Below are positions 1 to 8,325 of a stretch of 8,325 bases of DNA, piece after piece. Where the stretch lies: positions 1 through 8,325 of IMG/VR virus record IMGVR_UViG_2609460221_000006; one strand, written 5' to 3'. The stretch comes from a virus (Duplodnaviria; Heunggongvirae; Uroviricota; Caudoviricetes). The translations under genes and the position numbers were made by a program. Numbering within the stretch: the first letter of the stretch is position 1; every line of letters begins with the position of its first letter. The notes below the pieces were generated by a model. That model searched no databases. It was not told the DNA's origin and saw nothing but the letters and a program-made list of their open reading frames with translations.

Positions 1-907
1 GTGCATCATCTAACGGGATTTCATCGGTCATAATGGCAGATTGCGCTTCGCGTGATTGCTTAAGCCACCATTTAATGGTGTCCCGATCAATGACTCCGCC
101 AGCAGTTTCCAGATCGATAGTCTTACTAAATTCCGGTCCCATATCTCCGGTTTGCGGATCGAAAAATATTGCACCTATTGAGATAATCGGGGCATCTGGA
201 TTTTTTCCCATGGTTTCAAGGTCGATCATTAGATGGTCACACGTCCCGCTGGTGGATGTGCCTTTATGATGACCGTTCACCTTAACTGAGTGATCTGTCG
301 CCTCGCCAGTTTCACTATCGCTATCGTGATGCTGATTGCCGCCAGGGTTCTCCTTGTGTGGATGTTCAGTGCCTTCCATTTCCTCCGGATCATTTTCCTG
401 AACTTCAACCTGATTCTCTTCATTGAATGTTTCCTGGTATGTTGCGTCGCCCATCACCGCGCCACAATCAGGGCAGTTGCCGCCGCCGGTCTGACCGCAG
501 GCGGTGCAGATCTTTTCCGGTTCCTGTTGCACTACTGGTTCAGGTTGTTTCGTTTCTGGCTCGTTTTGTAACGCATTTGGGCTGTTTTGTTCCGCTTTCT
601 GGCCGTTCTGTTCCGTTTCTTGCTGGTTCTGGTTCACAGAATCGCGGGTTTCCATCCCCTTGACCCATTTCGGATCATTCGGGTCGCTAATCCCTGCAAC
701 AAATTCTCCGCGAGAGGCCGCAAGCAACTTATCGGCGTCAGGCTGGCTGATATTGGCTGCCTGCATAATTTTGTTTACTTCGTCAGCGGTAACTTTTACC
801 TGATTAACCGGATCTATCTGTGCCTGAGTATCCAGCGATTGCGTGTCCTGGCGATGTTCAGTTGTATTCGGCTCCATTGCTTCAGTCGTTGCCTGTTCAT
901 CTGCCAT
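1..907 (-). CDS. recE: RecE-family exonuclease VIII, downstream portion (partial, runs off the window; separated from the N-terminal ORF by a frameshift)
   Basis: Minus-strand frame open from ATG 907 to position 1, translating [30 protein letters not shown]...[30 protein letters not shown]...[16 protein letters not shown]... The [10 protein letters not shown] / [13 protein letters not shown] blocks match what I recall of the middle of E. coli RecE. The same frame is open upstream across the stop of the 936-2144 ORF. Confidence 0.6.
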
Positions 908-935
908 TGCGTCAGACGGTTGTGATTTTTCCTCA

Positions 936-2144
936 TTAATTTTTTTCTTCTTCTGTTTCGCGTTCAGCAGCCAGTTCGCGGTTAACTTCTTCCAGGATAT
1001 CTTTTTCCGGTGTATGTCGTGCAGCAGCGAGAGTTTCCTCGGTAGGGTTCTCGTGATCAGTTTCCGTCAAATAGGCGTTGATATACCCCTGAAGGCGTCC
1101 CGGGTAGTGATAAAATTCAGGGTGTGCGCTTCGGATAAGTGCAAAAATAGCGGCGCGGGAATAATCCAGGATACCCGGGATTGCGCGAAGTGCTGCGGAC
1201 CATTCTTTGAACGGACTTTCTTTCTTCCGGACGACTTCTTTTGCGCGACGATAAACGCTGCCCGGAATTTCATAAATATTAAAATCCATCGGAAGTGTGG
1301 CCGCTGCAATCTCCACATCCAGCGTATCGAAGGTGTGTACTAAATTCGGATTGCGATCGGTTTTGTTCCCTCCACCGGCATTAGCACCGGAAGCCGTGCG
1401 GGTGATGCGTGAAACACGATTTCCTTTCATCCACTCTTTTGTCAGCAGACCGCGATCGGTGTAGTCAGCGCCCAGGTATGCTTCGAAAAAAGCAGTCATC
1501 AGTCCCAGGTCTGAATTACCAGGATTAGGGAAAACTTTGTCCGTGTCACGAACCAGTTTGTGGAGATCGCGAATTTCCAGCGGTTCGAGTTGCGCTGCTT
1601 TATTTGAGATGGCCAGCGCGGTAACGGCGGGAAGTTTTTCATCCTGTGCGTTATGTAATGTGCGCAGTTCGTCCCGCGAAACGTGTGTGATCGGTTTTTC
1701 GCTGCCGTGCTGTGCCAGCCATCGAACAGGCAGAATCTGACCTGAAACCGGCAGGAGCATGTTCTCCTCAATCTCAGCCATGTCTTCGCCGTTGACGTTG
1801 GTATTGTCAGTGCTGGCTGGTTTATCCTGAACAGAGGGCGAGGGCGCGATAAGTACCATTGTGATACCATCTTCACCGCCCTTTTCGTATCGGTTGCAGA
1901 ATTCGGTATCAAACACGCCTTCCGGAGGAAGGTCATTCACAACGGGTAAATGGACGCGAACAGGTTTTTTAAAATCCTCTTTGTCAAATCCGGCATCGTC
2001 CATTGCGACAACACCGCGTGATATTGCAACCGATAATTTTTTTGCTGTGCGCCAGTAAAAACCGCCTTTAATTCCAAGACGTTTTCTGATTTTGTCATTT
2101 TTGGCTTCGTAATATAGTGCAATTTCTTCTTTATCAGTGCTCAT
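936..2144 (-). CDS. recE: RecE-family exonuclease VIII, N-terminal 402 aa (ends at TAA 936-938, probably prematurely)
   Basis: 402-aa ORF with blocks [111 protein letters not shown], recalled as the RecE N-terminal region. GAGG Shine-Dalgarno 8 nt upstream of ATG 2144. Confidence 0.8.
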
Positions 2145-2221
2145 TGATAAACCTCATTACAGATTTAAGGGTGAACAAATCCCTGCCATTGCTGGCATAT
2201 AAAAATGAAACCGGATATTAA

Positions 2222-2425
2222 TTACGGTGCTGTTTTAAGCCCCGCCGGGATTTCGTTATTGTCCATGTGAATAACTTTATCGACCGGATAACAGTTGCCG
2301 GGAATTTTCTGTTCCGCTGCGGCAGCCATGCATTCTTTCATTGAGTTGTACATGCCGGTGATTGCATCAAGCGACTCACCAGTATTGAGATGTACAGTCA
2401 GAATGAGTACGAATAATGTGTTCAT
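2222..2425 (-). CDS. Small hydrophobic protein, 67 aa, YdfD-like by position (tentative)
   Basis: ATG at 2425 overlaps the dicB stop (ATGA coupling); GGAGA Shine-Dalgarno upstream. N-terminal hydrophobic segment MNTLFVLILTVHL. Its position directly after dicB corresponds to ydfD in the Qin dicB operon; sequence identity to YdfD is not verified. Confidence 0.5.
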   Translation of the reverse strand: MNTLFVLILTVHLNTGESLDAITGMYNSMKECMAAAAEQKIPGNCYPVDKVIHMDNNEIPAGLKTAP

Positions 2426-2610
2426 CGCCACTCTCCGAAAATACCGAGTTTAAGAAGGGCAATTCTGGAGAGTATGGAATTGTCATTCAGCAGGTAGGGT
2501 TCATATTTTCTCATATTGATTGCATCCTCGGTGAAATCCCTGTTACTGAGCAGAACACCAATATTAAAGCACCCGTCAGACGTATTAACGTTTGGTAGTG
2601 ACGTTTCCAT
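2422..2610 (-). CDS. dicB: Cell-division inhibitor DicB homologue, 62 aa
   Basis: Translation METSLPNVNTSDGCFNIGVLLSNRDFTEDAINMRKYEPYLL... matches the recalled DicB signature (LPNVNTSEGCFEIGV...FTEDAINKRK) at the same 62-aa length. GAGGA Shine-Dalgarno 7 nt upstream of ATG 2610; lies just downstream of DicF as in Qin. The ORF track's longer 97-aa version (to 2715) has no support for its N-terminal extension. Confidence 0.8.
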   Translation of the reverse strand: METSLPNVNTSDGCFNIGVLLSNRDFTEDAINMRKYEPYLLNDNSILSRIALLKLGIFGEWR

Positions 2611-2779
2611 TATCGCGTCCTCAACAATGAATTTTGTGATGCGGTGCCTGGTGCCTCCAGGTGACGTTAACCAGTTAACAATTAACGCCGGATACAGAGA
2701 ATCCACCCATAACACTGTTTTTGGTTTTAACTGTTCCGCGTGCGCTCAGCCGCATTCACCACATCACAAAATTCACTTT

Positions 2780-2822
2780 AAAAAGGGCGGCAGAGCAGTC
2801 ACGGAGTAAAACTGATACCGCC
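2780..2822 (-). terminator. Intrinsic terminator hairpin forming the 3' end of DicF
   Basis: Minus strand GGCGGTATCAG...CTGCTCTGCCGCC stem-loop followed by a run of 5 U (plus-strand A 2780-2784). Probably leaky, since dicB lies downstream in the same operon. Confidence 0.6.
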
Positions 2823-2837
2823 AAAAGTCACCAGAAA
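2785..2837 (-). ncRNA. dicF: DicF small RNA (Hfq-dependent ftsZ-targeting sRNA processed from the dicB operon transcript)
   Basis: Minus-strand sequence TTTCTGGTGACTTTTGGCGGTATCAGTTTTACTCCGTGACTGCTCTGCCGCCC followed by TTTTT, matching the 53-nt DicF as I recall it apart from one possible substitution. Ends in a GGCGG...CCGCC hairpin plus U-tract. The 5' end is processed, so it is approximate. Confidence 0.85.
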
Positions 2838-3172
2838 ATTGATAACAGAGGGCGTTGCAGCGGAGTTGTCACTTAAGCGTATGGTCAACCTGACAACCCG
2901 GTGTCCTCAACGGGGGAAGGAATAACCCCGCCATACTTACCGCCGCGCCATTTCGCGGATTGCCACAACCGGAAGCGCACGGTCGACGAAAATTTAACGA
3001 CAGGCTATCTATGAACCAGCTACCTCGCCGTGCGCTTTCGCGTTATGGTCTGACTTTTCAGGGAAATATCCTTTCAGTAAACTGTCAGTGCCGGATGCTC
3101 ACCCGTGTCCGGCGCACGCACTCCACCTCACCCGTGGAGAACTCCTTAATCACCAACCCTCAGGAGGGTGAA

Positions 3173-3448
3173 ATGTCGACTGAAAATGATGAAATCATTA
3201 ACTCCCTGATACGCCAGATTAATAATTTTGATAAAGCATTGCAACATGCTGCGGCGCGTAGTGATATAACTCTTTTAGCAATTTCATTTCTTGCATCTGT
3301 TATGGATAAAAATGAAGTCGTACGACAGAGTCTTGTTGATTATATCGACTCGCTTCAACCCGGCACTTTCAATCATGAGAGCTTCAATCATGAGAAAGAG
3401 CATGTTAAGTCTGTAATTAATTCTCTTATTTTGAATCAAAAGAATTAA
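3173..3448 (+). CDS. Hypothetical protein, 91 aa, in an AT-rich island (unknown function)
   Basis: Strong Shine-Dalgarno CAGGAGGGTGAA directly before ATG 3173. The in-frame upstream part of the ORF-track call (2960-3172) is GC-rich with no RBS and is rejected. Base composition drops sharply at 3173. Predicted mildly acidic and helical, with an FNHES-FNHE tandem repeat; no motif I recognise. Confidence 0.6.
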   Translation: MSTENDEIINSLIRQINNFDKALQHAAARSDITLLAISFLASVMDKNEVVRQSLVDYIDSLQPGTFNHESFNHEKEHVKSVINSLILNQKN

Positions 3449-3746
3449 TGCTTTTTGTTGCAAAGTAATTTTCAAGGGGTTCTATTCGAATCCCTTTCTT
3501 TTTCATTAACAAGCCAAACCCCTTATCAATGATGTCCATTAGATCCAGGAAGTATTTTTCATGTAAATCCTGGTTATCAGAGAGCTGCTTCTCTTCGTAC
3601 AGCCCGATAAAGGCTCGGCGTACGTTACCGGATATATTGTCGATGGTTTCTTTTTCTACGGTACTCAGGTCAAGAGTCGCCAGTTGAGAGCGAACCACAT
3701 TCGATGCCATTTCCTGGAATGGTACTGGTAAATCTTTAAATTCCAT
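3426..3746 (-). CDS. Hypothetical protein, 106 aa, in the AT-rich island (unknown function)
   Basis: ATG 3746 is preceded by GAGGT at good spacing. An alternative ATG at 3758 overlaps the upstream gene's stop (TGATG) and gives 110 aa. Co-oriented with the dicB operon, convergent with 3173-3448 and overlapping its 3' end by 23 bp. Acidic, helical, no recognisable catalytic motif. Confidence 0.6.
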   Translation of the reverse strand: MEFKDLPVPFQEMASNVVRSQLATLDLSTVEKETIDNISGNVRRAFIGLYEEKQLSDNQDLHEKYFLDLMDIIDKGFGLLMKKKGIRIEPLENYFATKSINSFDSK

Positions 3747-3757
3747 CGTCAACCTCA

Positions 3758-3910
3758 TCAGTCAGTGTTTCTGGTTAACCAGCGACGCGCGCCAGCTTCA
3801 GTTTTAAACGTTTTGCTTCTGGTATATGTCATCGCGGTAAACGTGCCGTCCTGGTTGGGAAACACGCCGCATACCAGAGATTCGTTGTTGCCAAGCTCGA
3901 TAGTATCCAT
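3758..3910 (-). CDS. Small protein, 50 aa, YdfA-like (DUF1391-like, tentative); first gene of the leftward operon
   Basis: ATG 3910 has a GAGGT Shine-Dalgarno 5 nt upstream. The longest ORF starts at 3991 (77 aa) but with a weaker RBS. Product MDTIELGNNESLVCGVFPNQDGTFTAMTYTRSKTFKTEAGARRWL resembles, from memory, the ~51-aa YdfA that heads the Qin dicB operon. Confidence 0.5.
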   Translation of the reverse strand: MDTIELGNNESLVCGVFPNQDGTFTAMTYTRSKTFKTEAGARRWLTRNTD

Positions 3911-4091
3911 GCTGACCTCATTTCCCCTTAACGCCGGGGTAGCGGAACAAAAACCTGCTGCATAGTTATTAAAGTTGAACCCTGCCGTCATGTTCTTACG
4001 CCTCGGGCTGGCTACTTAACCCCTGACCACTGCCGGGTAACTCGAAGTATTGCCTGGCGTTCTGTGGGGCGGGGTGGGTTGATGAATGAAC

Positions 4092-4131
4092 AATACCACT
4101 ACTATTTAATTATGTAAATAGCAGTGCTATT
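4092..4131. promoter_or_regulatory. Leftward (PL-like) operator region: two copies of a 16-bp AAATAG-N4-G(C/G)TATT site in opposite orientations
   Basis: 4116-4131 is AAATAGCAGTGCTATT on the plus strand; 4092-4107 reads AAATAGTAGTGGTATT on the minus strand. Together they form a 30-bp near-palindrome (4097-4126). The same motif occurs twice in the repressor/cro intergenic region. Lies upstream of the leftward operon, with TTTACA / TATTGT-like hexamers nearby on the minus strand. Confidence 0.45.
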
Positions 4132-4142
4132 ATCGTGGCAAG

Positions 4143-4164
4143 AAAAAAAACCACCCGAAGGTGG
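4143..4164 (-). terminator. Rho-independent terminator ending the paaR2-paaA2-parE2 operon
   Basis: Minus strand CCACC-TTCG-GGTGG hairpin immediately followed by 8 U (plus-strand A 4143-4150), 17 nt downstream of the parE stop. Confidence 0.7.
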
Positions 4165-4180
4165 TTGTTGACAGGAAGGA

Positions 4181-4471
4181 TTAACAGGTTTTGTTTGGAT
4201 ACTGTCTTCGTGAGTGAACTACATTTACGATCTCGATGTTAGATGCTGTTACTCGGTAAAGTATTATGTAGTTAGGATGAGTCACTATCTCACGAAGACT
4301 TGGAACTCTTTCGCTCGGTGGGTACAGATAAGGGTGTTCAGTAAGTGACAAAACTGATGTTTCAATGCGTATTTTTAGTCTACGTGCAGCGGGAGGGTTT
4401 TCCTTAGCAATATAGGCTACGATCTGACGTAAATCATCACGTGCAGAAGGTAGCCATAAAATGGGCAGCAT
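4181..4471 (-). CDS. parE2: ParE/RelE-family type II toxin, 96 aa (ParE2-like)
   Basis: Translation MLPILWLPSARDDLRQIVAYIAKENPPAARRL...REIVTHPNYIILYRV...IEIVNVVHSRR shows the ParE/RelE pattern. Start overlaps the stop of the upstream antitoxin ORF, a typical toxin-antitoxin arrangement. Confidence 0.85.
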   Translation of the reverse strand: MLPILWLPSARDDLRQIVAYIAKENPPAARRLKIRIETSVLSLTEHPYLYPPSERVPSLREIVTHPNYIILYRVTASNIEIVNVVHSRRQYPNKTC

Positions 4472-4662
4472 TACTCACTCCTGTTCGTTGCAGCTAATTG
4501 AGCAATAAGGTTTTCCATTTCAGCCATTACTTCGTCATGTGGAATTGCAGGACGGGGATCTGAGAGGCTTGCTGCCACTTTGGTTCGCAACCATTCGTTA
4601 TAGCTGTTTTCTTGTTCGACTGTTTCAAATTCAGAAATTATCGGGGAAAGGGCTGTACTCAT
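4471..4662 (-). CDS. paaA2: Small antitoxin, 63 aa (PaaA2-like), partner of ParE2
   Basis: 63-aa acidic ORF immediately upstream of, and coupled to, the ParE gene. GAGGAGG Shine-Dalgarno 7 nt before ATG 4662. Size and context fit the PaaA2 antitoxin of the paaR2-paaA2-parE2 module described in E. coli O157:H7 prophages; the name is by synteny and recall. Confidence 0.7.
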   Translation of the reverse strand: MSTALSPIISEFETVEQENSYNEWLRTKVAASLSDPRPAIPHDEVMAEMENLIAQLAATNRSE

Positions 4663-4679
4663 GTTTTTACCTCCTCAGA

Positions 4680-5181
4680 TTAGGCGCGACGACCCTTTTG
4701 CGCAGCTAGCCATCGCGCAACGATTTCTTCAATTGATTCTTTTTTCTCCTTCATTTCCTTAAGCATTTTCTCTTTATCTTCTTTGGGGAAAGCCCTGAAC
4801 GTCTGGAGCAAATCCCGCTCCATGGGGTCTATATTAAACGGAAGTTCGTTTTCCGATTGTTCCATATCTGCAGATATAGTGACAACATTGTCCTCCCCAG
4901 ATTCTTGGGGATACATCCTTACAATTTGTAACAACTCGGCCATATCTGGTCTGATTGACTCGGGAGGAACTTGCAGCAACCCTGCGAACTTGATAACAGC
5001 CTCAAGATTTAAAGGTGTCTGACCATTTAGATAATGGCTTACAGCTCCCTGTGTCGAAAATCCCAGAATTTCTGCCGCACGCTCTTGGGTTAACCCTAGT
5101 TGAATTTTTTTTCGCCGTCCAGATTTCTTTCAGTCTCTGGGCGGCTTGCAGGTCGATCTCTGACAGGGATTTTCTTTTCAT
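4680..5181 (-). pseudogene. paaR2: Lambda cI-like HTH repressor (PaaR2-like), reading frame broken in an A8 run
   Basis: ATG 5181 with GAAGG Shine-Dalgarno gives MKRKSLSEIDLQAAQRLKEIWTAKK, then the frame is lost in the A8 run (plus-strand T 5105-5112). The -1 frame continues (KK)IQLGLTQERAAEILGFSTQGAVSHYLNGQTPLNLEAVIKFAGLLQVPPESIRPDM... to TAA 4680. The joined N-terminus closely resembles the lambda CI N-terminal domain ([27 protein letters not shown]...). The intact-frame tail is the 4680-4979 ORF in the track. Confidence 0.75.
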
Positions 5182-5288
5182 ACCTTCAATTCTAATAAGA
5201 TTATTAATCTCTTTGAAATAGTGATGCTATTTACTTTTAAAAATAACAATGCTATTAATGATCGTGATGACATCACATGAGGTGAACA
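5182..5288. promoter_or_regulatory. Divergent promoter/operator region between the cI-like and cro-like genes (PRM/PR analogue)
   Basis: Two direct copies of the 16-bp motif, AAATAGTGATGCTATT (5216-5231) and AAATAACAATGCTATT (5241-5256), 25 bp centre to centre. A 13-bp perfect palindrome GTGATGACATCAC (5264-5276) and TAATAA-GA-TTATTA (5193-5206). Candidate rightward promoter TTTACT-N17-TATTAA. GAGGTG Shine-Dalgarno before ATG 5289. Confidence 0.55.
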
Positions 5289-5564
5289 ATGAATCTTGGA
5301 GAATATTTGCATCATTCCGGTATAACTCAGAAGCATTTTGCTGAAATTGTTGGGGTAACCCAAGGGATGGTAAGCCATGTCATTACCGGACGGGCGAAAC
5401 TTACGGGGAAAAAAATTTTACGCTGGTGCGAAGCAACAGGCTGGATAGTAACTCCGCACGAGATTGATGGCAGTACTTATCCCAACCCAACCGACGGCTT
5501 ACCTGTCGAGTATCAGGCTAACACACAACCAGAGGCGGGGGTGATTCATGAAAATCAAGCATGA
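5289..5564 (+). CDS. ydaS: Cro-like HTH DNA-binding protein, 91 aa (YdaS-like)
   Basis: HTH segment ITQKHFAEIVGVTQGMVSHVITG. Divergent from the cI-like gene across an operator-rich spacer; Shine-Dalgarno GAGGTG at 5279-5284. Confidence 0.8.
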   Translation: MNLGEYLHHSGITQKHFAEIVGVTQGMVSHVITGRAKLTGKKILRWCEATGWIVTPHEIDGSTYPNPTDGLPVEYQANTQPEAGVIHENQA

Positions 5565-5584
5565 ACACATCCGCATGGCAATGA

Positions 5585-5974
5585 ATGCCTGGGCGCATCC
5601 GGACGGCGAAAAAAGTACCGGCTGCGAAAATTACCAAAGCGTATTTCGAGCTGGGAATGACGTTCCCGGAACTGTATGACGACAGCCATCCGGAAGCCCT
5701 GGCCCGTAATACCCAGAAAATTTTCCGTTGGCTGGATAAAGACACCCCTGATGCTGTTGAAAAAATGCAGGCTCTGTTACCGGCGATCGAAAAGGCGATG
5801 CCGCCTTTGCTGGTGGCCCGTATGCGCAGCCACAGTTCTGAATATTACCGTGAGATCGTCGAACGGAGGGATCGGCTGGTGAAGGATGTCGATGATTTTG
5901 TTGCGTCAGCGGTTGTTTTGTATGACCAGATGAATCGCGGCGGCCCGGCAGGGAATGCTGTGGTGATGCACTAA
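5585..5974 (+). CDS. ydaT: YdaT-like (CII-analogue) protein; longest intact frame shown, native start probably ATG 5548 with a frameshift in an A6 run
   Basis: The 129-aa ORF from ATG 5585 has no Shine-Dalgarno and begins right after an in-frame TGA. ATG 5548 has a strong GAGGCGGGGG RBS and overlaps the cro-like stop; it encodes MKIKHEHIRMAMNAWAHPDGEK and then leaves the frame at the A6 run 5609-5614. One A fewer would give a ~140-aa product, the size I recall for YdaT. The gene name is by synteny with Rac ydaS-ydaT. Confidence 0.6.
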   Translation: MPGRIRTAKKVPAAKITKAYFELGMTFPELYDDSHPEALARNTQKIFRWLDKDTPDAVEKMQALLPAIEKAMPPLLVARMRSHSSEYYREIVERRDRLVKDVDDFVASAVVLYDQMNRGGPAGNAVVMH

Positions 5975-5996
5975 AAGCACGGTGTTCGGGGGTTTT

Positions 5997-6959
5997 ATGA
6001 GCAGCAAGCTTCATGGTCTTGTCTGGGAAGGGTGCGCCTTCACCGGCATGATCTTATCCAGGGTGGCGGTTATGGCCCGTCTTGCAGACTACAGCAATGA
6101 CGAGGGCGTGTCATGGCCTGCCATTGAAACTATCCGGCGTCAGATCGGTGCAAGAAGTGAATCCACAGTGAAATCGGCTATTGCAGAACTGGCGAAAGAG
6201 GGCTGGCTGACGAAGGAAGAGCGTAAGGTCGGTGGGCGTAATGTAAGCAATATCTATCGGCTTAATGTGGAAAAACTCGAAGCAGCTGCGGCGGCGGCGC
6301 GTGAGTCATATAAACCGAAAAGAAAAATTAGCCCGGCAAAAAATGACCCGTTAACAGTTGACCCGTCAAATATTGCCCCCTCAACGGTTGACCCGTCAAA
6401 TTTTGATGGATCAACTGTTGATAAAAAACTGCCGATTAGGGGGGCGATGATTGACCCCGATCCGTCAGTATTAAAACCTGATCCGTCAGATAAAAGATCT
6501 TCTTGTCCGGACGCTTCGCAACCGGACCCGCAGACGGCTGAACAGGATTTTTTAACCCGACACCCTGACGCGGTTGTGTTCAGTGCGAAAAAACGCCAGT
6601 GGGGAAGTCAGGAAGATTTGGTGTGCGCACAGTGGATCTGGGGACGAATCGTGAGTCTTTACGAGCAGGCGGCCAGCTATGATGGCGAGATCACTAGACC
6701 GAAAGAACCCAACTGGACAGCATGGGCCAATGACGTTCGCACAATGCGGATGCTGGATGGCAGAACTCACAGACAAATTTGTGAAATGTTTGGGCGTCTC
6801 CAGCGGGATTCGTTCTGGGTAAAAAACATCATGAGTCCGGCAAAACTCCGGGAAAAATGGGATGAACTGGTTATCCGCCTGGGGCGTTCGCCTGCGCAGC
6901 GTTGCGTGAATCACATTTCTGAACCGGACACTGAAATACCGCCGGGATTCAGGGGGTGA
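5997..6959 (+). CDS. Replication initiator, lambda O analogue (YdaU-like), with origin iterons inside the gene
   Basis: 321-aa ORF from ATG 5997 (GGGGG upstream); GTG 5982 is an alternative start. N-terminal winged-helix-like region ...VSWPAIETIRRQIGARSESTVKSAIAELAKEGWL. The central coding region carries tandem DNA repeats that encode the repeated TVDPSN / DPS peptides. Sits between the cII-like gene and the DnaC-like loader. Confidence 0.7.
   Translation: MSSKLHGLVWEGCAFTGMILSRVAVMARLADYSNDEGVSWPAIETIRRQIGARSESTVKSAIAELAKEGWLTKEERKVGGRNVSNIYRLNVEKLEAAAAAARESYKPKRKISPAKNDPLTVDPSNIAPSTVDPSNFDGSTVDKKLPIRGAMIDPDPSVLKPDPSDKRSSCPDASQPDPQTAEQDFLTRHPDAVVFSAKKRQWGSQEDLVCAQWIWGRIVSLYEQAASYDGEITRPKEPNWTAWANDVRTMRMLDGRTHRQICEMFGRLQRDSFWVKNIMSPAKLREKWDELVIRLGRSPAQRCVNHISEPDTEIPPGFRG
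6356..6489. repeat. Iteron cluster: putative replication origin within the O-like gene
   Basis: AGTTGACCCGTCAAAT at 6356-6371 and GGTTGACCCGTCAAAT at 6386-6401 (each containing the inverted pair TTGAC/GTCAA), TGTTGATAAAAAA at 6417-6429, and GATCCGTCAG at 6458-6467 and 6480-6489. Iterons inside the initiator gene are the lambda ori arrangement. Confidence 0.55.
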
Positions 6960-6965
6960 CGTGTC

Positions 6966-7712
6966 ATGAAAAACATTGCGGCAGTTGGGGTTCTTGAACG
7001 TATTCGCAGACTTGCACCACAGGGGTCGGTTCCACCGTACCGGACGGTGGAGGAGTGGCGGGAATGGCAACTTGCTGAAGGACGAAAACGCAGCGAGGAG
7101 ATTAACCGCCAGAATCGCCAGTTGCGGGTGGAAAAAATCCTGAATCGTTCGGGCATCCAGCCTCTGCACAGCAAATGCTCGTTTGCAAATTATCAGGTGC
7201 AGAACGACGGGCAAAAATACGCGCTGAGCCAGGCCAAATCCATAGCTGACGAACTGATGACCGGGTGCACGAATTTTGTGTTCAGCGGTAAAACCGGCAC
7301 CGGGAAAAATCACCTTGCAGCGGCGATGGGCAACCGGCTGATGGTGAAGGGGCGCAGCGTGATTATCGTCACCGTGTCTGACGTCATGAGCGTGTTGCAT
7401 GACAGCTACGACAACGGCAAATCCGGGGAAAAATTTTTACAGGAGCTTTGCGGGGTTGATTTGCTGGTCCTGGATGAAATAGGCGTTCAGCGGGAGACGA
7501 AAAACGAGCAGGTGGTATTGCACCAGATAATTGATCGCCGGACAGCATCACTGTGCAGTGTCGGGATGTTAACAAACCTGAATCATGCCGCAATGAGTAC
7601 GCTTCTTGGTGAGAGGATTATGGACCGCATGACCATGAACGGTGGTCGATGGGTGACGTTTAACTGGGATAGCTGGCGTCCAAATGTCAGCAATATGAGG
7701 GTTGTGAAGTAA
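6966..7712 (+). CDS. ydaV: DnaC-like helicase loader / IstB-like AAA+ ATPase, 248 aa (YdaV-like)
   Basis: Walker A FSGKTGTGKNHLAAAMG and Walker B DLLVLDEIG. AGGGGG Shine-Dalgarno before ATG 6966, which follows the O-like stop by 6 nt. Confidence 0.85.
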   Translation: MKNIAAVGVLERIRRLAPQGSVPPYRTVEEWREWQLAEGRKRSEEINRQNRQLRVEKILNRSGIQPLHSKCSFANYQVQNDGQKYALSQAKSIADELMTGCTNFVFSGKTGTGKNHLAAAMGNRLMVKGRSVIIVTVSDVMSVLHDSYDNGKSGEKFLQELCGVDLLVLDEIGVQRETKNEQVVLHQIIDRRTASLCSVGMLTNLNHAAMSTLLGERIMDRMTMNGGRWVTFNWDSWRPNVSNMRVVK

Positions 7713-7733
7713 TTTTGTCCGGAGGAAATTTTA

Positions 7734-8325
7734 ATGGAAACCGTATCTGACGCACTGAAAGCACTGAAAAAAGCCTCTTCACATGTGGTGGCAGCTCGCC
7801 TTGGAATCAGTCGTGAAGAGGCTGTCAACGAGCTGTGGGAACTCAAAAGAAAAGGCGTCGTTGATAAAACTGGTCACACCTGGTTTCTGGCTGGCGAAGG
7901 TGAATCCCGGGTAACCGAAGAGCGGCCAGTAAAATCTGAAGCACAGGATATGCTGACCGGGGAGGTCGAACAAAAAGTTACCGCAGACATGATGATTGAG
8001 TTTATCGGTCAGGATGGGGCTAAAACGTGTGAGGAACTGGCGGGTAAGTTCAGTGTCAGTACTCGCAAGGTTGCTTCCACGCTGGCGGTGGTAACCGCAA
8101 CGGGGCGGCTGGCACGCGTTAATCAGAACGGTAAATTTCGTTACTGCATGCCGGGCGATAATTTACCAGCAGAGCCGAAAGCCGCGCTGGTAACGGAAAG
8201 TGATGGTAAGGCCTTTCCTCAGCCAGCAGGTGCTGCGTTACCAGTCCGGGAAGCCGCAACACAGGAAGAAATTAAAACAGAAACTGTGGCGGACATTGTG
8301 CAGCCGTTGCCATCGTTTACCGAAA
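7734..8325 (+). CDS. Hypothetical prophage protein, partial (runs off the right edge), with two winged-helix-like segments
   Basis: GGAGGA Shine-Dalgarno 7 nt before ATG 7734; frame open to the window end (197 codons), so it is absent from the ORF track. Translation METVSDALKALKKASSHVVAARLGISREEAVNELWELKRKGVVDK...CEELAGKFSVSTRKVASTLAVVTATGRLARV. Corresponds in position to the gene after ydaV in Rac. Confidence 0.6.
   Translation, partial: METVSDALKALKKASSHVVAARLGISREEAVNELWELKRKGVVDKTGHTWFLAGEGESRVTEERPVKSEAQDMLTGEVEQKVTADMMIEFIGQDGAKTCEELAGKFSVSTRKVASTLAVVTATGRLARVNQNGKFRYCMPGDNLPAEPKAALVTESDGKAFPQPAGAALPVREAATQEEIKTETVADIVQPLPSFTE

Follow-up and report, generated by a model that had tools for sequence, protein, structure and literature searches.

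An intact dicF–dicB–ydfD cassette in the early-left operon of a lambdoid prophage

In the Qin prophage of Escherichia coli K-12, the genes ydfA-ydfB-ydfC-dicF-dicB-ydfD-ydfE are under the repressor DicA, which represses dicBp; RNase III and RNase E process DicF, and the switch is bistable (PMC10448788). Pairing of DicF with ftsZ uses the 3' region of the RNA, of which a 72-nt form with an RNase III 3' end has been published (PMC5069750). The dicBF genes have also been reported in CP-933O, CP-933M, and CP-933P (Balasubramanian et al. 2016, PMC5069750). In the paaR2-paaA2-parE2 system of the O157:H7 prophage CP-933P, which has a PRM/PR/PL933P switch, PL lies downstream of parE2, and PaaR2 and YdaS repress PL933P via OL operators (Jurenas et al. 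2021, PMC8630535); leaderless paaR2 and cI mRNAs have been described as well (PMC8630535). The dicF/dicB/ydfD cassette is already known, its characterised genes being present in most E. coli genomes and often multicopy, and in lying between an immunity region and a block of exonuclease, xis, and int it follows the standard lambdoid early-left layout, known already from Qin and the CP-933 prophages. Here, we discuss an 8,325-nt stretch of a Caudoviricetes record (IMGVR_UViG_2609460221_000006, positions 1 to 8,325), all of which is referred to as the window. With a probability of about 0.9, it carries a lambdoid prophage's early-left (PL) operon in the usual form, in which dicF–dicB–ydfD is intact and the frameshifts are most likely sequence errors.

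The initial annotation proposed a DicF sRNA, DicB, and a YdfD-like gene, and all three were found on the minus strand, well above chance, by Rfam, Pfam, and comparison with K-12. The interval proposed for them, 2422-2837, contains dicF and dicB, whereas the YdfD-like gene (2222-2425) lies just outside it. The DicF covariance model and DicB homology had been named beforehand as deciding, and both gave positive results. The dicF gene (2785..2836) matched the full Rfam model RF00039 (model positions 1-52 of 52; 75.8 bits vs a gathering score of 48, E 8.3e-16), which was the only gathering-level Rfam match in the whole window. The K-12 DicF annotation has one extra 5' U, which places nt 1 of the 53-nt form at 2837; in this form, 1 of the 53 bases differed from K-12 DicF (G12U), at a position that is also variable among other loci. 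The gene lies in sense orientation after the ydf genes and before dicB, as it does in Qin. The dicB gene (2422..2610) encodes a 62-aa cell-division inhibitor of PHROG 1251, which matched PF05358 at positions 1-60 of 62 (111.7 bits against a cut-off of 27, E 1.3e-32). This protein was 100% identical to WP_000450218.1, annotated as 'cell division inhibition protein DicB', and 64% identical to K-12 DicB, with divergence in the last ~20 residues; MinC-dependent activity of this allele is assumed by analogy. The YdfD-like protein (67 aa) matched PF07358 (DUF1482; 69.6 bits against 25, E 2e-19) and was 67% identical to K-12 YdfD ('lysis protein') and 100% identical to WP_001093951.1. Its ATG start follows the annotation of relatives, with a GTG further upstream at 2431 that is open too, and overlaps the dicB TGA (ATGA) in the same way as in K-12; the gene appears to be translationally coupled to dicB. 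At the nucleotide level, window positions 2150-3158 aligned with K-12 Qin at 86.5%, in an alignment that begins directly behind ydfC and ends directly behind ydfD.

The exonuclease gene (1..2144, minus strand) exits the left end of the window. It reads as a 402-aa ORF (936-2144) owing to a +1 A at 938, without which the frame is open for 714 codons up to the window edge. This A was the sole difference from the DNA of the intact gene encoding the 818-aa WP_001542183.1 in a potC-side prophage (L005). The N-terminal part partially matched PF06630 (Exonuc_VIII; residues 55-189, profile positions 46-203, 99.7 bits). The intact ortholog has a C-terminal PF16473 domain (Rv2179c-like DEDDh 3'-5' exonuclease, residues 637-808), the start of which is reached by the corrected translation of the window gene, and for such genes RefSeq uses the names 'exonuclease' or '3'-5' exonuclease'. 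Consequently, the RecE-family neighbour previously proposed holds for the N-terminal non-catalytic region (PF06630) but not for the C-terminal nuclease domain: a RecE-type 5'-3' nuclease domain was not found in the C-terminal part of the intact ortholog, which ends in PF16473 instead.

DicF comprises a 5' single-stranded region, a 3' stem-loop (2822-2786), and a U5 tail (2784-2780), and the modelled stem-loop and tail would constitute an intrinsic terminator. The predicted fold was the same as that of K-12 DicF (−15.9 kcal/mol). The predicted duplex with the K-12 ftsZ RBS region (−29..+25) had an energy of −37.1 kcal/mol, vs −38.5 kcal/mol for K-12 DicF, and the residues predicted to pair with ftsZ were identical in the two RNAs. 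The spacer between dicF and dicB (2611..2784, minus strand) was also structured, with an MFE fold of z-score −4.6 that none of 200 shuffles matched in stability. This fold contains an uninterrupted 21-bp stem, formed by 2777-2757 with 2646-2626 around a variable apical region, and both arms were nearly invariant among the five loci compared. The modelled stem is likely an RNase III processing site; the published end of 72-nt DicF would map to ~2766, within the 5' arm. Immediately 3' of the stem lies the dicB RBS, GAGGA. Pairing of the DicF 5' end with dicB codons 3-5, which the MFE structure contained, was set aside, as the K-12 sequence gives no support for it. At one O157:H7 locus that has dicB (L004), Rfam returned no gathering-level DicF match, and the 5' part of the aligned dicF had diverged.

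Promoter scanning and palindrome searches located a PL-like leftward promoter with operator-like palindromes at 4090..4131 (minus strand), consisting of −35 TTTACA (4118-4113), a 17-nt spacer, and a TG-extended −10 TATTGT (4095-4090), overlapped by palindromes at 4092-4106 and 4117-4131. The 15-bp palindrome AATAGCA-N-TGCTATT occurred four times in the window, where 0.30 occurrences were expected, and none of 200 shuffles reached this number. It was confined to this promoter and the repressor/cro intergenic region, with a spacing of 25 bp at both. Loci with a different repressor lacked it, and the ompW prophage L003, which has the same repressor, had it. When immunity types were compared, homology broke exactly at the promoter/operator segment, and a conserved leader began just downstream. 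Because operator-like palindromes common to repressor/cro and PL co-vary with immunity type across loci, the earlier claim that the window's repressor controls dicF-dicB is supported at the sequence level, with the palindromes at both sites as putative operators. A terminator scan flagged 4126-4097, but 4092-4131 was rejected as a terminator: the same 15-mers and spacing recur at repressor/cro, the tail is not T-rich, and the −35/−10 pair overlaps the palindromes. The repressor-paaA-parE operon ends at a predicted intrinsic terminator (4149..4166, minus strand; 7-bp stem, 4 GC pairs, T8 tail) directly upstream of the PL-like promoter. The promoter-proximal genes of the leftward operon (3426..3910, minus strand) were a ydfA-like DUF1391 gene (3758-3910; PF07151 E 9e-28), 88% identical to K-12 YdfA, and a 110-aa ORF (3426-3758; PHROG 6937) standing where Qin has ydfB/ydfC; a plus-strand ORF at 3173-3448 had no match in Pfam or PHROGs.

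The immunity region had been described as a PaaR2-type module, and its toxin–antitoxin part was borne out. Behind the regulator gene, on the minus strand (4181..4662), a paaA2-like antitoxin gene (4471-4662; PF21217 PaaA2 E 1e-21; PDB 3zbe PaaA2 E 2e-22) shares an operon with a parE2-like toxin gene (4181-4471; PF05016 ParE E 6.6e-18; PDB 5cw7 ParE E 5e-36), and the two products were 84% and 88% identical to those of O157:H7, respectively. As for the repressor, the description fits the C-terminus but not the DNA-binding domain. A +1 A at 5103 interrupts the repressor gene (4680..5181, minus strand); with the frame corrected, the gene product has 166 aa and is identical to WP_000824162.1. Residues 2-90 matched the N-terminal domain of lambda cI in PDB (E ~1e-9), and homology to PaaR2 did not extend across the whole protein including the DNA-binding domain, with only the C-terminal ~80 aa aligning with O157 PaaR (47% identity). 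We infer a domain-swapped variant that combines a lambda cI-like N-terminal DNA-binding domain with a PaaR2-like C-terminus and would work like PaaR2/cI. Since this DNA-binding domain differs from that of the characterised PaaR2, footprints from CP-933P are not directly transferable, and the hybrid repressor with its own operator sequence may be regarded as a minor new immunity variant. The divergent repressor/cro control region (5189..5256) contained a PRM-like promoter (5217-5189, minus strand), the −10 of which stops 8 nt short of the repressor ATG, implying a leaderless repressor mRNA. The operator-like palindromes of the control region (5217-5231 and 5242-5256) are spaced 25 bp apart, like the PL pair, and the Cro-like protein is encoded at 5289-5564.

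For this locus, repression, processing, and the division block are carried over by analogy from what has been published for Qin and CP-933P. In a lysogen, the repressor bound to the two 15-bp palindromes over the −35 and −10 would keep PL off. Upon derepression, a single transcript would run from the ydfA-like gene through the 110-aa ORF and a long leader to dicF, dicB, ydfD, and the exonuclease gene. Termination at the DicF hairpin could then release DicF, or else an RNase III cut in the downstream 21-bp stem combined with an RNase E cut at the 5' end, and freed DicF would pair with the ftsZ ribosome-binding site and block FtsZ synthesis. Read-through transcripts would yield DicB, which would act through MinC to inhibit division, as well as the YdfD lysis protein coupled to it in translation. 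The exonuclease gene is followed by xis and int in close relatives; in the case of the window, this part is beyond the left end.

We investigated the distribution of the cassette among 5,426 complete E. coli genomes. Positions 2150-3000 were matched in 4,741 of them, at a median of 2 places per genome and up to 10. The copies examined carry several different immunity types. In every relative examined, namely the O157:H7 PaaR/PaaA/ParE prophage, the ompW- and potC-side prophages, and phage Tritos, the order was ydfA…dicF-dicB-ydfD-exonuclease-xis-int. What the analysis establishes directly is which parts are present, in what order, and that they are intact and conserved, along with the putative operators common to both control regions, the predicted RNA structures, and how widespread the arrangement is.

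How the parts came together allows more than one explanation. The initial annotation saw a mosaic of Qin and Rac modules, in which an early-left operon of the Rac/CP-933P type would have received dicF-dicB from Qin, forming an unusual chimera of cryptic prophages. In favour of this view, block 2150-3158 has sharp homology edges on both sides when compared with Qin, the immunity module (PaaA/ParE and the repressor) is unlike DicA/DicC of Qin, and kilR occupies the dicB slot in phage Rac-SA53; however, kilR of Rac-SA53 is still preceded by the dicF-dicB spacer, suggesting that the two genes occupy one ancestral slot. The N-terminal region of the exonuclease carries the RecE-associated PF06630, which is missing in the Qin ydfE-type exonuclease, but Qin itself has an exonuclease gene (the ydfE remnant) right after ydfD, and the DUF1482 gene and dicB directly followed the PF06630-type exonuclease in both such loci read (L005 and L012). 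Moreover, window 1-2200, comprising this exonuclease and 56 bases of the spacer before ydfD, was at least 80% covered in 1,251 genomes. An O157:H7 prophage of the PaaR/PaaA/ParE type carries DicF-dicB-DUF1482-exonuclease in identical order, and published reports place dicBF in CP-933P (PMC5069750) and dicB/kil downstream of paaR2/cI (PMC8630535). With Qin, the O157:H7 PaaR-type, ompW, and potC-side prophages, and Tritos all sharing the order, a transplantation is very improbable and the 'Qin versus Rac mosaic' reading is to be dropped. The existing mosaicism is ordinary lambdoid module exchange around the conserved 1-kb block 2150-3158, and the cassette is a normal intact copy of a well-known prophage division-inhibition unit, not an unusual mosaic. 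A different kind of join, inside dicB, is possible though unlikely: the left side (the ydfD allele and the exonuclease gene) and the right side (dicF and the immunity region) would come from different co-resident prophages, brought together by assembly or by recent recombination. Window 1-2635 was identical to L005 except for the +A at 938, and L012, which is the same potC-side prophage, matched 1-2200 at 100%, whereas 2411-8325 was identical to L003 except for the coding indels and an intergenic A7/A8 difference at 4143. Both parental prophages occur in strain WP4-W18-ESBL-09 and have the identical 225-bp segment 2411-2635 in common. In the 5,426 complete genomes, neither the whole window nor 2150-3000 had an exact colinear match, the best matches covering 84% or consisting of two pieces interrupted by a Rha cassette; because this exact combination of left and right parts is not colinear there, the exonuclease part and the window's immunity region may not be physically linked in nature. 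Against an assembly chimera, lambdoid prophages often exchange homologously and a genuine recombinant would look alike, and the set of complete genomes is not exhaustive. In either case, the functional reading is unchanged, as the segment colinear with L003 includes dicF and dicB together with the PL region and the repressor.

The frameshifts are +1 A insertions at 938, 5103, and 5609, each of which breaks an ORF (exonuclease, repressor, and YdaT-like, respectively). All three affect the same strand and fall within or next to a homopolymer, and no compared relative has them; over 8.3 kb, the window differed from its intact relatives by these three coding indels and zero substitutions. Since the single-A insertions sit in sequence otherwise identical to intact relatives, sequence errors are the most likely explanation. 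The A7/A8 difference at 4143 was considered as a fourth error and rejected, because the A8 state of the window, which differs from L003, is also found in L008. Alternatively, the frameshifts may be real, and the window would then belong to a decaying prophage with a broken repressor, YdaT-like regulator, and exonuclease, in which dicF/dicB/ydfD are silenced otherwise, by a repressor supplied in trans from a homo-immune prophage or by an inactive PL. The three insertions do stand in the sequence as given, frameshifts are common in cryptic prophages (e.g., a 'frameshifted' DUF1482 pseudogene at an O157:H7 locus), and, as E. coli genomes have this region in a median of 2 copies and at most 10, a second repressor copy is conceivable. 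Nevertheless, three extra A on the same strand without substitutions in 8.3 kb, and in none of the compared genomes, argue against decay. The 402-aa exonuclease product has a sole match in public assemblies, in a 1,242-bp contig that stops at that point and is uninformative on the frameshift. In K-12, loss of DicA is lethal or filament-inducing owing to dicB, and a repressor null beside intact PL, dicF, dicB, and ydfD should therefore be counter-selected. We thus consider real frameshifts quite improbable. The stronger version, in which the prophage has lost its own repressor and kept an intact toxic cassette so that the host survives only by the trans-acting repressor of a second homo-immune prophage, is more doubtful still; if it were true, the division-inhibition cassette of one prophage would be a hostage enforcing retention of another. 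A real repressor frameshift would require a trans-acting repressor in the silencing model, and this frameshift should be given no biological reading until it is confirmed in reads.

Taking the window as the usual early-left operon, Qin resembles it in the order and orientation of the ydfA-like gene, dicF, dicB, ydfD, and the exonuclease gene, with DicF differing at 1 of 53 bases and having the same terminator and downstream stem. Qin ydfE is the N-terminal remnant of an exonuclease of ~825 aa; its translation starts like that of the intact 825-aa exonuclease of locus L001 and is interrupted by IS2E, followed by intQ, whereas the window exonuclease has no IS2 cut and a PF06630-type N-terminus. 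Unlike Qin, which has DicA/DicC, the window has the cI-NTD/PaaR2-CTD repressor and the PaaA/ParE pair, the 110-aa PHROG-6937 ORF and an antisense AT-rich ORF stand in place of ydfB and ydfC, and DicB and YdfD are 64% and 67% identical. In Rac (recE-racC-ydaE-kilR), a division inhibitor likewise lies upstream of an exonuclease gene with a PF06630 region, but it is kilR instead of dicB, and the window exonuclease terminates in the DEDDh 3'-5' domain PF16473. The kilR leader of Rac-SA53 is ~90% identical to the dicF-dicB spacer; this match spans window 2626-2790 only, ending within the dicF 3' end, and DicF is absent from the annotation of that record there. Phage Tritos has the order int-xis-exonuclease VIII-ydfD-dicB-DicF-ydfC-ydfB-ydfA-cI-cro, with DicF annotated, and PPompW prophage records match the dicB-dicF part of the window at 94%; the nearest relative of the right part of the window is inserted beside ompW. 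Both differ from the window in their immunity repressors, with a cassette identity of ~91-94%, and Tritos has no PaaA/ParE. The CP-933P-type prophages (PMC8630535) differ in the repeats reported for their operators, which are of the GTTTAGTAA type as opposed to AATAGCA-N-TGCTATT, and in the repressor, with which the window protein, lambda-cI-like in its N-terminal DNA-binding domain, has only the C-terminal ~80 aa (47%) in common; between the window and O157, DicB identity is only 44%. Their overall design is nonetheless that of the window: a repressor-antitoxin-toxin operon is followed by a terminator and then by a leftward promoter whose operators match the repressor/cro ones, the repressor start appears leaderless, and ydfA…DicF-dicB-DUF1482-exonuclease are found downstream.

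The dicF-dicB-ydfD cassette is real, intact and entirely conventional, occupies the usual lambdoid early-left place, and is already known. When the whole window was searched against Rfam, the sole gathering-threshold match was RF00039 (DicF), which covers the full model at 2785–2836 (−) with 75.8 bits (gathering score 48, E = 8.3e-16), where the initial annotation had proposed DicF within 2780–2840. This RNA is one base apart from K-12 DicF (G12U, a position that is variable in other loci too) and adopts the same fold. The 62-aa dicB (Pfam DicB PF05358, E = 1.3e-32) starts at ATG 2610 inside a 97-aa ORF at 2422–2715 (−), and the YdfD-like gene (2222–2425, −; Pfam DUF1482, the YdfD family, E = 2e-19) overlaps it in an ATGA, its ATG on the dicB TGA, with an identical overlap in K-12. 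Identity to K-12 was 64% for DicB and 67% for YdfD, and each protein was 100% identical to RefSeq proteins of other E. coli (annotated as DicB and DUF1482). All three elements are therefore confirmed by Rfam RF00039, Pfam PF05358 and DUF1482, and the K-12 comparison; the span first assigned to them, 2422–2837, contains dicF and dicB, but the YdfD-like gene lies just to its left.

The leftward operon has a single strong internal terminator, formed by the 3′ hairpin of DicF and the U5 tail that follows it. The 174-nt spacer ahead of dicB has a fold z-score of −4.6 and holds an uninterrupted 21-bp stem (2777–2757 paired with 2646–2626), both arms of which are nearly invariant among five loci while the apical part is variable; the 3′ end of the published 72-nt RNase III form of DicF (PMC5069750) would map inside its 5′ arm. 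The ftsZ-pairing 3′ region of DicF is identical to that of K-12, and its pairing with the region of the ftsZ RBS was predicted at −37.1 kcal/mol, versus −38.5 for K-12 DicF.

To the left of the cassette, the exonuclease gene reads as a 402-aa ORF at 936–2144 (−) with an Exonuc_VIII region (Pfam PF06630). Its stop at 936 is due solely to one additional A, at 938; without this base, the frame is open for 714 codons, to the window edge. Apart from this A, window 1–2635 is identical to a potC-side prophage (L005) with an intact 818-aa exonuclease (6687–9143), whose C-terminus is the DEDDh 3′–5′ exonuclease domain PF16473, not the RecE nuclease domain, so that the label "RecE-family" is apt for the non-catalytic N-terminal region (PF06630) only. 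A RecE-type N-terminal Pfam region, PF06630, is joined here to a C-terminal PF16473. The exonuclease type of window 1–2200 was covered at at least 80% in 1,251 genomes of the complete E. coli set. The Qin ydfE-type allele likewise ends in PF16473 but differs at its N-terminus.

The initial annotation described this arrangement as a mosaic of Qin and Rac modules, a reading that we abandon, because the cassette already lies directly upstream of an exonuclease gene in Qin and other prophages. The order in K-12 Qin is dicA, ydfA, ydfB, ydfC, dicF, dicB, ydfD, ydfE, IS2E, intQ, and the N-terminal sequence of ydfE is the same as the start of the intact 825-aa exonuclease of a further relative, L001 (translations compared by eye); Qin thus likewise has an exonuclease gene right after dicF-dicB-ydfD. 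This order, with xis and int next in line, recurs in the ompW prophage nearest to the window (L003), in potC-side prophages, in phage Tritos (DicF annotated), and in an O157:H7 prophage with the PaaR/PaaA/ParE module (DicF, 76.9 bits). Window 2150–3000 was matched in 4,741 of 5,426 complete E. coli genomes, and the median number of matching places in a genome was two. Previous reports place dicBF in CP-933O, CP-933M and CP-933P (Balasubramanian et al. 2016, PMC5069750) and draw dicB/kil downstream of paaR2/cI (Jurenas et al. 2021, PMC8630535). Nucleotide comparison with K-12 Qin aligned block 2150–3158 at 86.5% identity, with non-homologous modules at either flank; this mosaicism is ordinary lambdoid module exchange.

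In the close relatives L001 (4471–5325 and 5086–5274) and L005 (9620–10474 and 10235–10423), dicF and dicB are separated by an inserted Rha-family regulator gene; the insert carries matches to C4 antisense RNA (RF01695) and isrK (RF01394), a 5′ fragment of dicB is left in duplicate, and the window and L003 are without the insert. The locus of O157:H7 strain Z563 (L004, 5537–5800) keeps dicB, the conserved spacer and the terminator tail; the 5′ part of its DicF has diverged, and no gathering-level Rfam match for DicF was found in this locus. In the annotation of this locus, the DUF1482 gene carries a frameshift.

To the right, a long leader (2837–3158, −) is followed by an AT-rich 91-aa ORF (3173–3448, +), which lies between dicF and the ydfA-like gene in the orientation opposite to that of the leftward operon and has its own terminator (3474–3496, +). 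Pfam and PHROG searches of this ORF gave no match, and it is "hypothetical" in the annotation of relatives; it is possibly a moron. A 110-aa ORF (−; PHROG 6937), the ydfA-like gene (−; DUF1391), a promoter/operator segment and a terminator come next, and beyond these lie parE2-like and paaA2-like genes (−; Pfam; PDB 5cw7 and 3zbe, respectively), the repressor gene (4680–5181, −) and, past it on the plus strand, cro-like, YdaT-like, O-like and DnaC-like genes.

Both the repressor gene and the YdaT-like gene are interrupted by a single additional A, at 5103 and 5609, respectively. Window 2411–8325 differs from L003 by three single-base insertions and zero substitutions. One of these, at 4143 (A8 versus A7, intergenic), is natural variation, since it also occurs in L008, another relative. 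The extra A's at 5103, 5609 and 938 (the last relative to L005) occur in no relative compared, and all are on the plus strand, at or beside a homopolymer, and break an ORF. Three indels with zero substitutions suggest sequencing error, and the repressor frameshift is probably an artefact like the other two. K-12 does not tolerate the loss of DicA, because of dicB; a true repressor null beside intact PL (the leftward early promoter), dicF, dicB and ydfD would therefore be counter-selected. The A insertions aside, window 1–2635 corresponds to the potC-type prophage and 2411–8325 to the ompW type, which have in common an identical 225-bp segment (2411–2635) in dicB, placing the crossover within this gene. 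These parents co-reside in strain WP4-W18-ESBL-09, and no colinear exact match to the window was found among the 5,426 complete genomes; it follows that the window is a genuine recombinant or a chimera created during assembly. Neither possibility alters how dicF, dicB, PL and the repressor are interpreted, as all of them are on the L003-colinear part.

With the extra A removed, the repressor has 166 aa and is identical to WP_000824162.1. Residues 2–90 match the lambda cI N-terminal domain (PDB, E ~1e-9), only the last ~80 residues resemble O157 PaaR (47%), and a LexA/S24-type cleavage domain is absent. By sequence, the protein is a domain hybrid of a lambda cI-like DNA-binding domain and a PaaR2-like C-terminus. 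"PaaR2-type" immunity thus remains appropriate for the operon architecture and the C-terminus, but not for the DNA-binding domain, whose lambda cI-like character fits an operator sequence differing from that of PaaR2.

A predicted sigma-70-like PL (−) is located 30 bp beyond the intrinsic terminator of the repressor-paaA-parE operon (4166–4149, −), with −35 TTTACA (4118–4113), a 17-nt spacer and a TG-extended −10 TATTGT (4095–4090). Two 15-bp palindromes, AATAGCA-N-TGCTATT, overlap PL (4092–4106 and 4117–4131), and two occupy the repressor/cro intergenic region (5217–5231 and 5242–5256), with a centre-to-centre spacing of 25 bp in both places. Four matches compare with 0.30 expected in the window, a count that was not attained in any of 200 shuffles. 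The motif also occurs in L003, whose repressor is the same, and was not found in control regions of compared loci with other repressors. In the PL-region alignment, homology between immunity types starts just downstream of the promoter/operator segment. Since the motif tracks repressor type and homology starts beyond this segment, we read the palindromes as the predicted operators of the window's immunity type; their presence at both PL and the repressor/cro region supports, at the sequence level, the proposed control of the cassette by the window's own repressor. PL and the presumed PR have the same layout, with a 40-nt inverted repeat that is 70% complementary. A −10 like that of PRM, the repressor promoter, ends 8 nt ahead of the repressor ATG, a position implying that the mRNA would be leaderless, as reported for cI and paaR2 mRNAs (PMC8630535).

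By analogy with published Qin work, the repressor would shut PL, DicF would be processed from the transcript and repress FtsZ, DicB would act with MinC, and YdfD would account for lysis. Phage Rac-SA53, which is of the Rac type, has kilR in place of dicB; the leader preceding kilR shares ~90% identity with the structured dicF-dicB spacer, which suggests one leader common to interchangeable division-inhibitor genes. The counterpart of window 2626–2790 in this phage is 3501–3658, ~90% conserved upstream of kilR, and its record annotates neither dicB nor DicF. The control architecture of the window parallels PL933P/OL, experimentally repressed by PaaR2 and YdaS (PMC8630535), and dicBp, repressed by DicA (PMC10448788).
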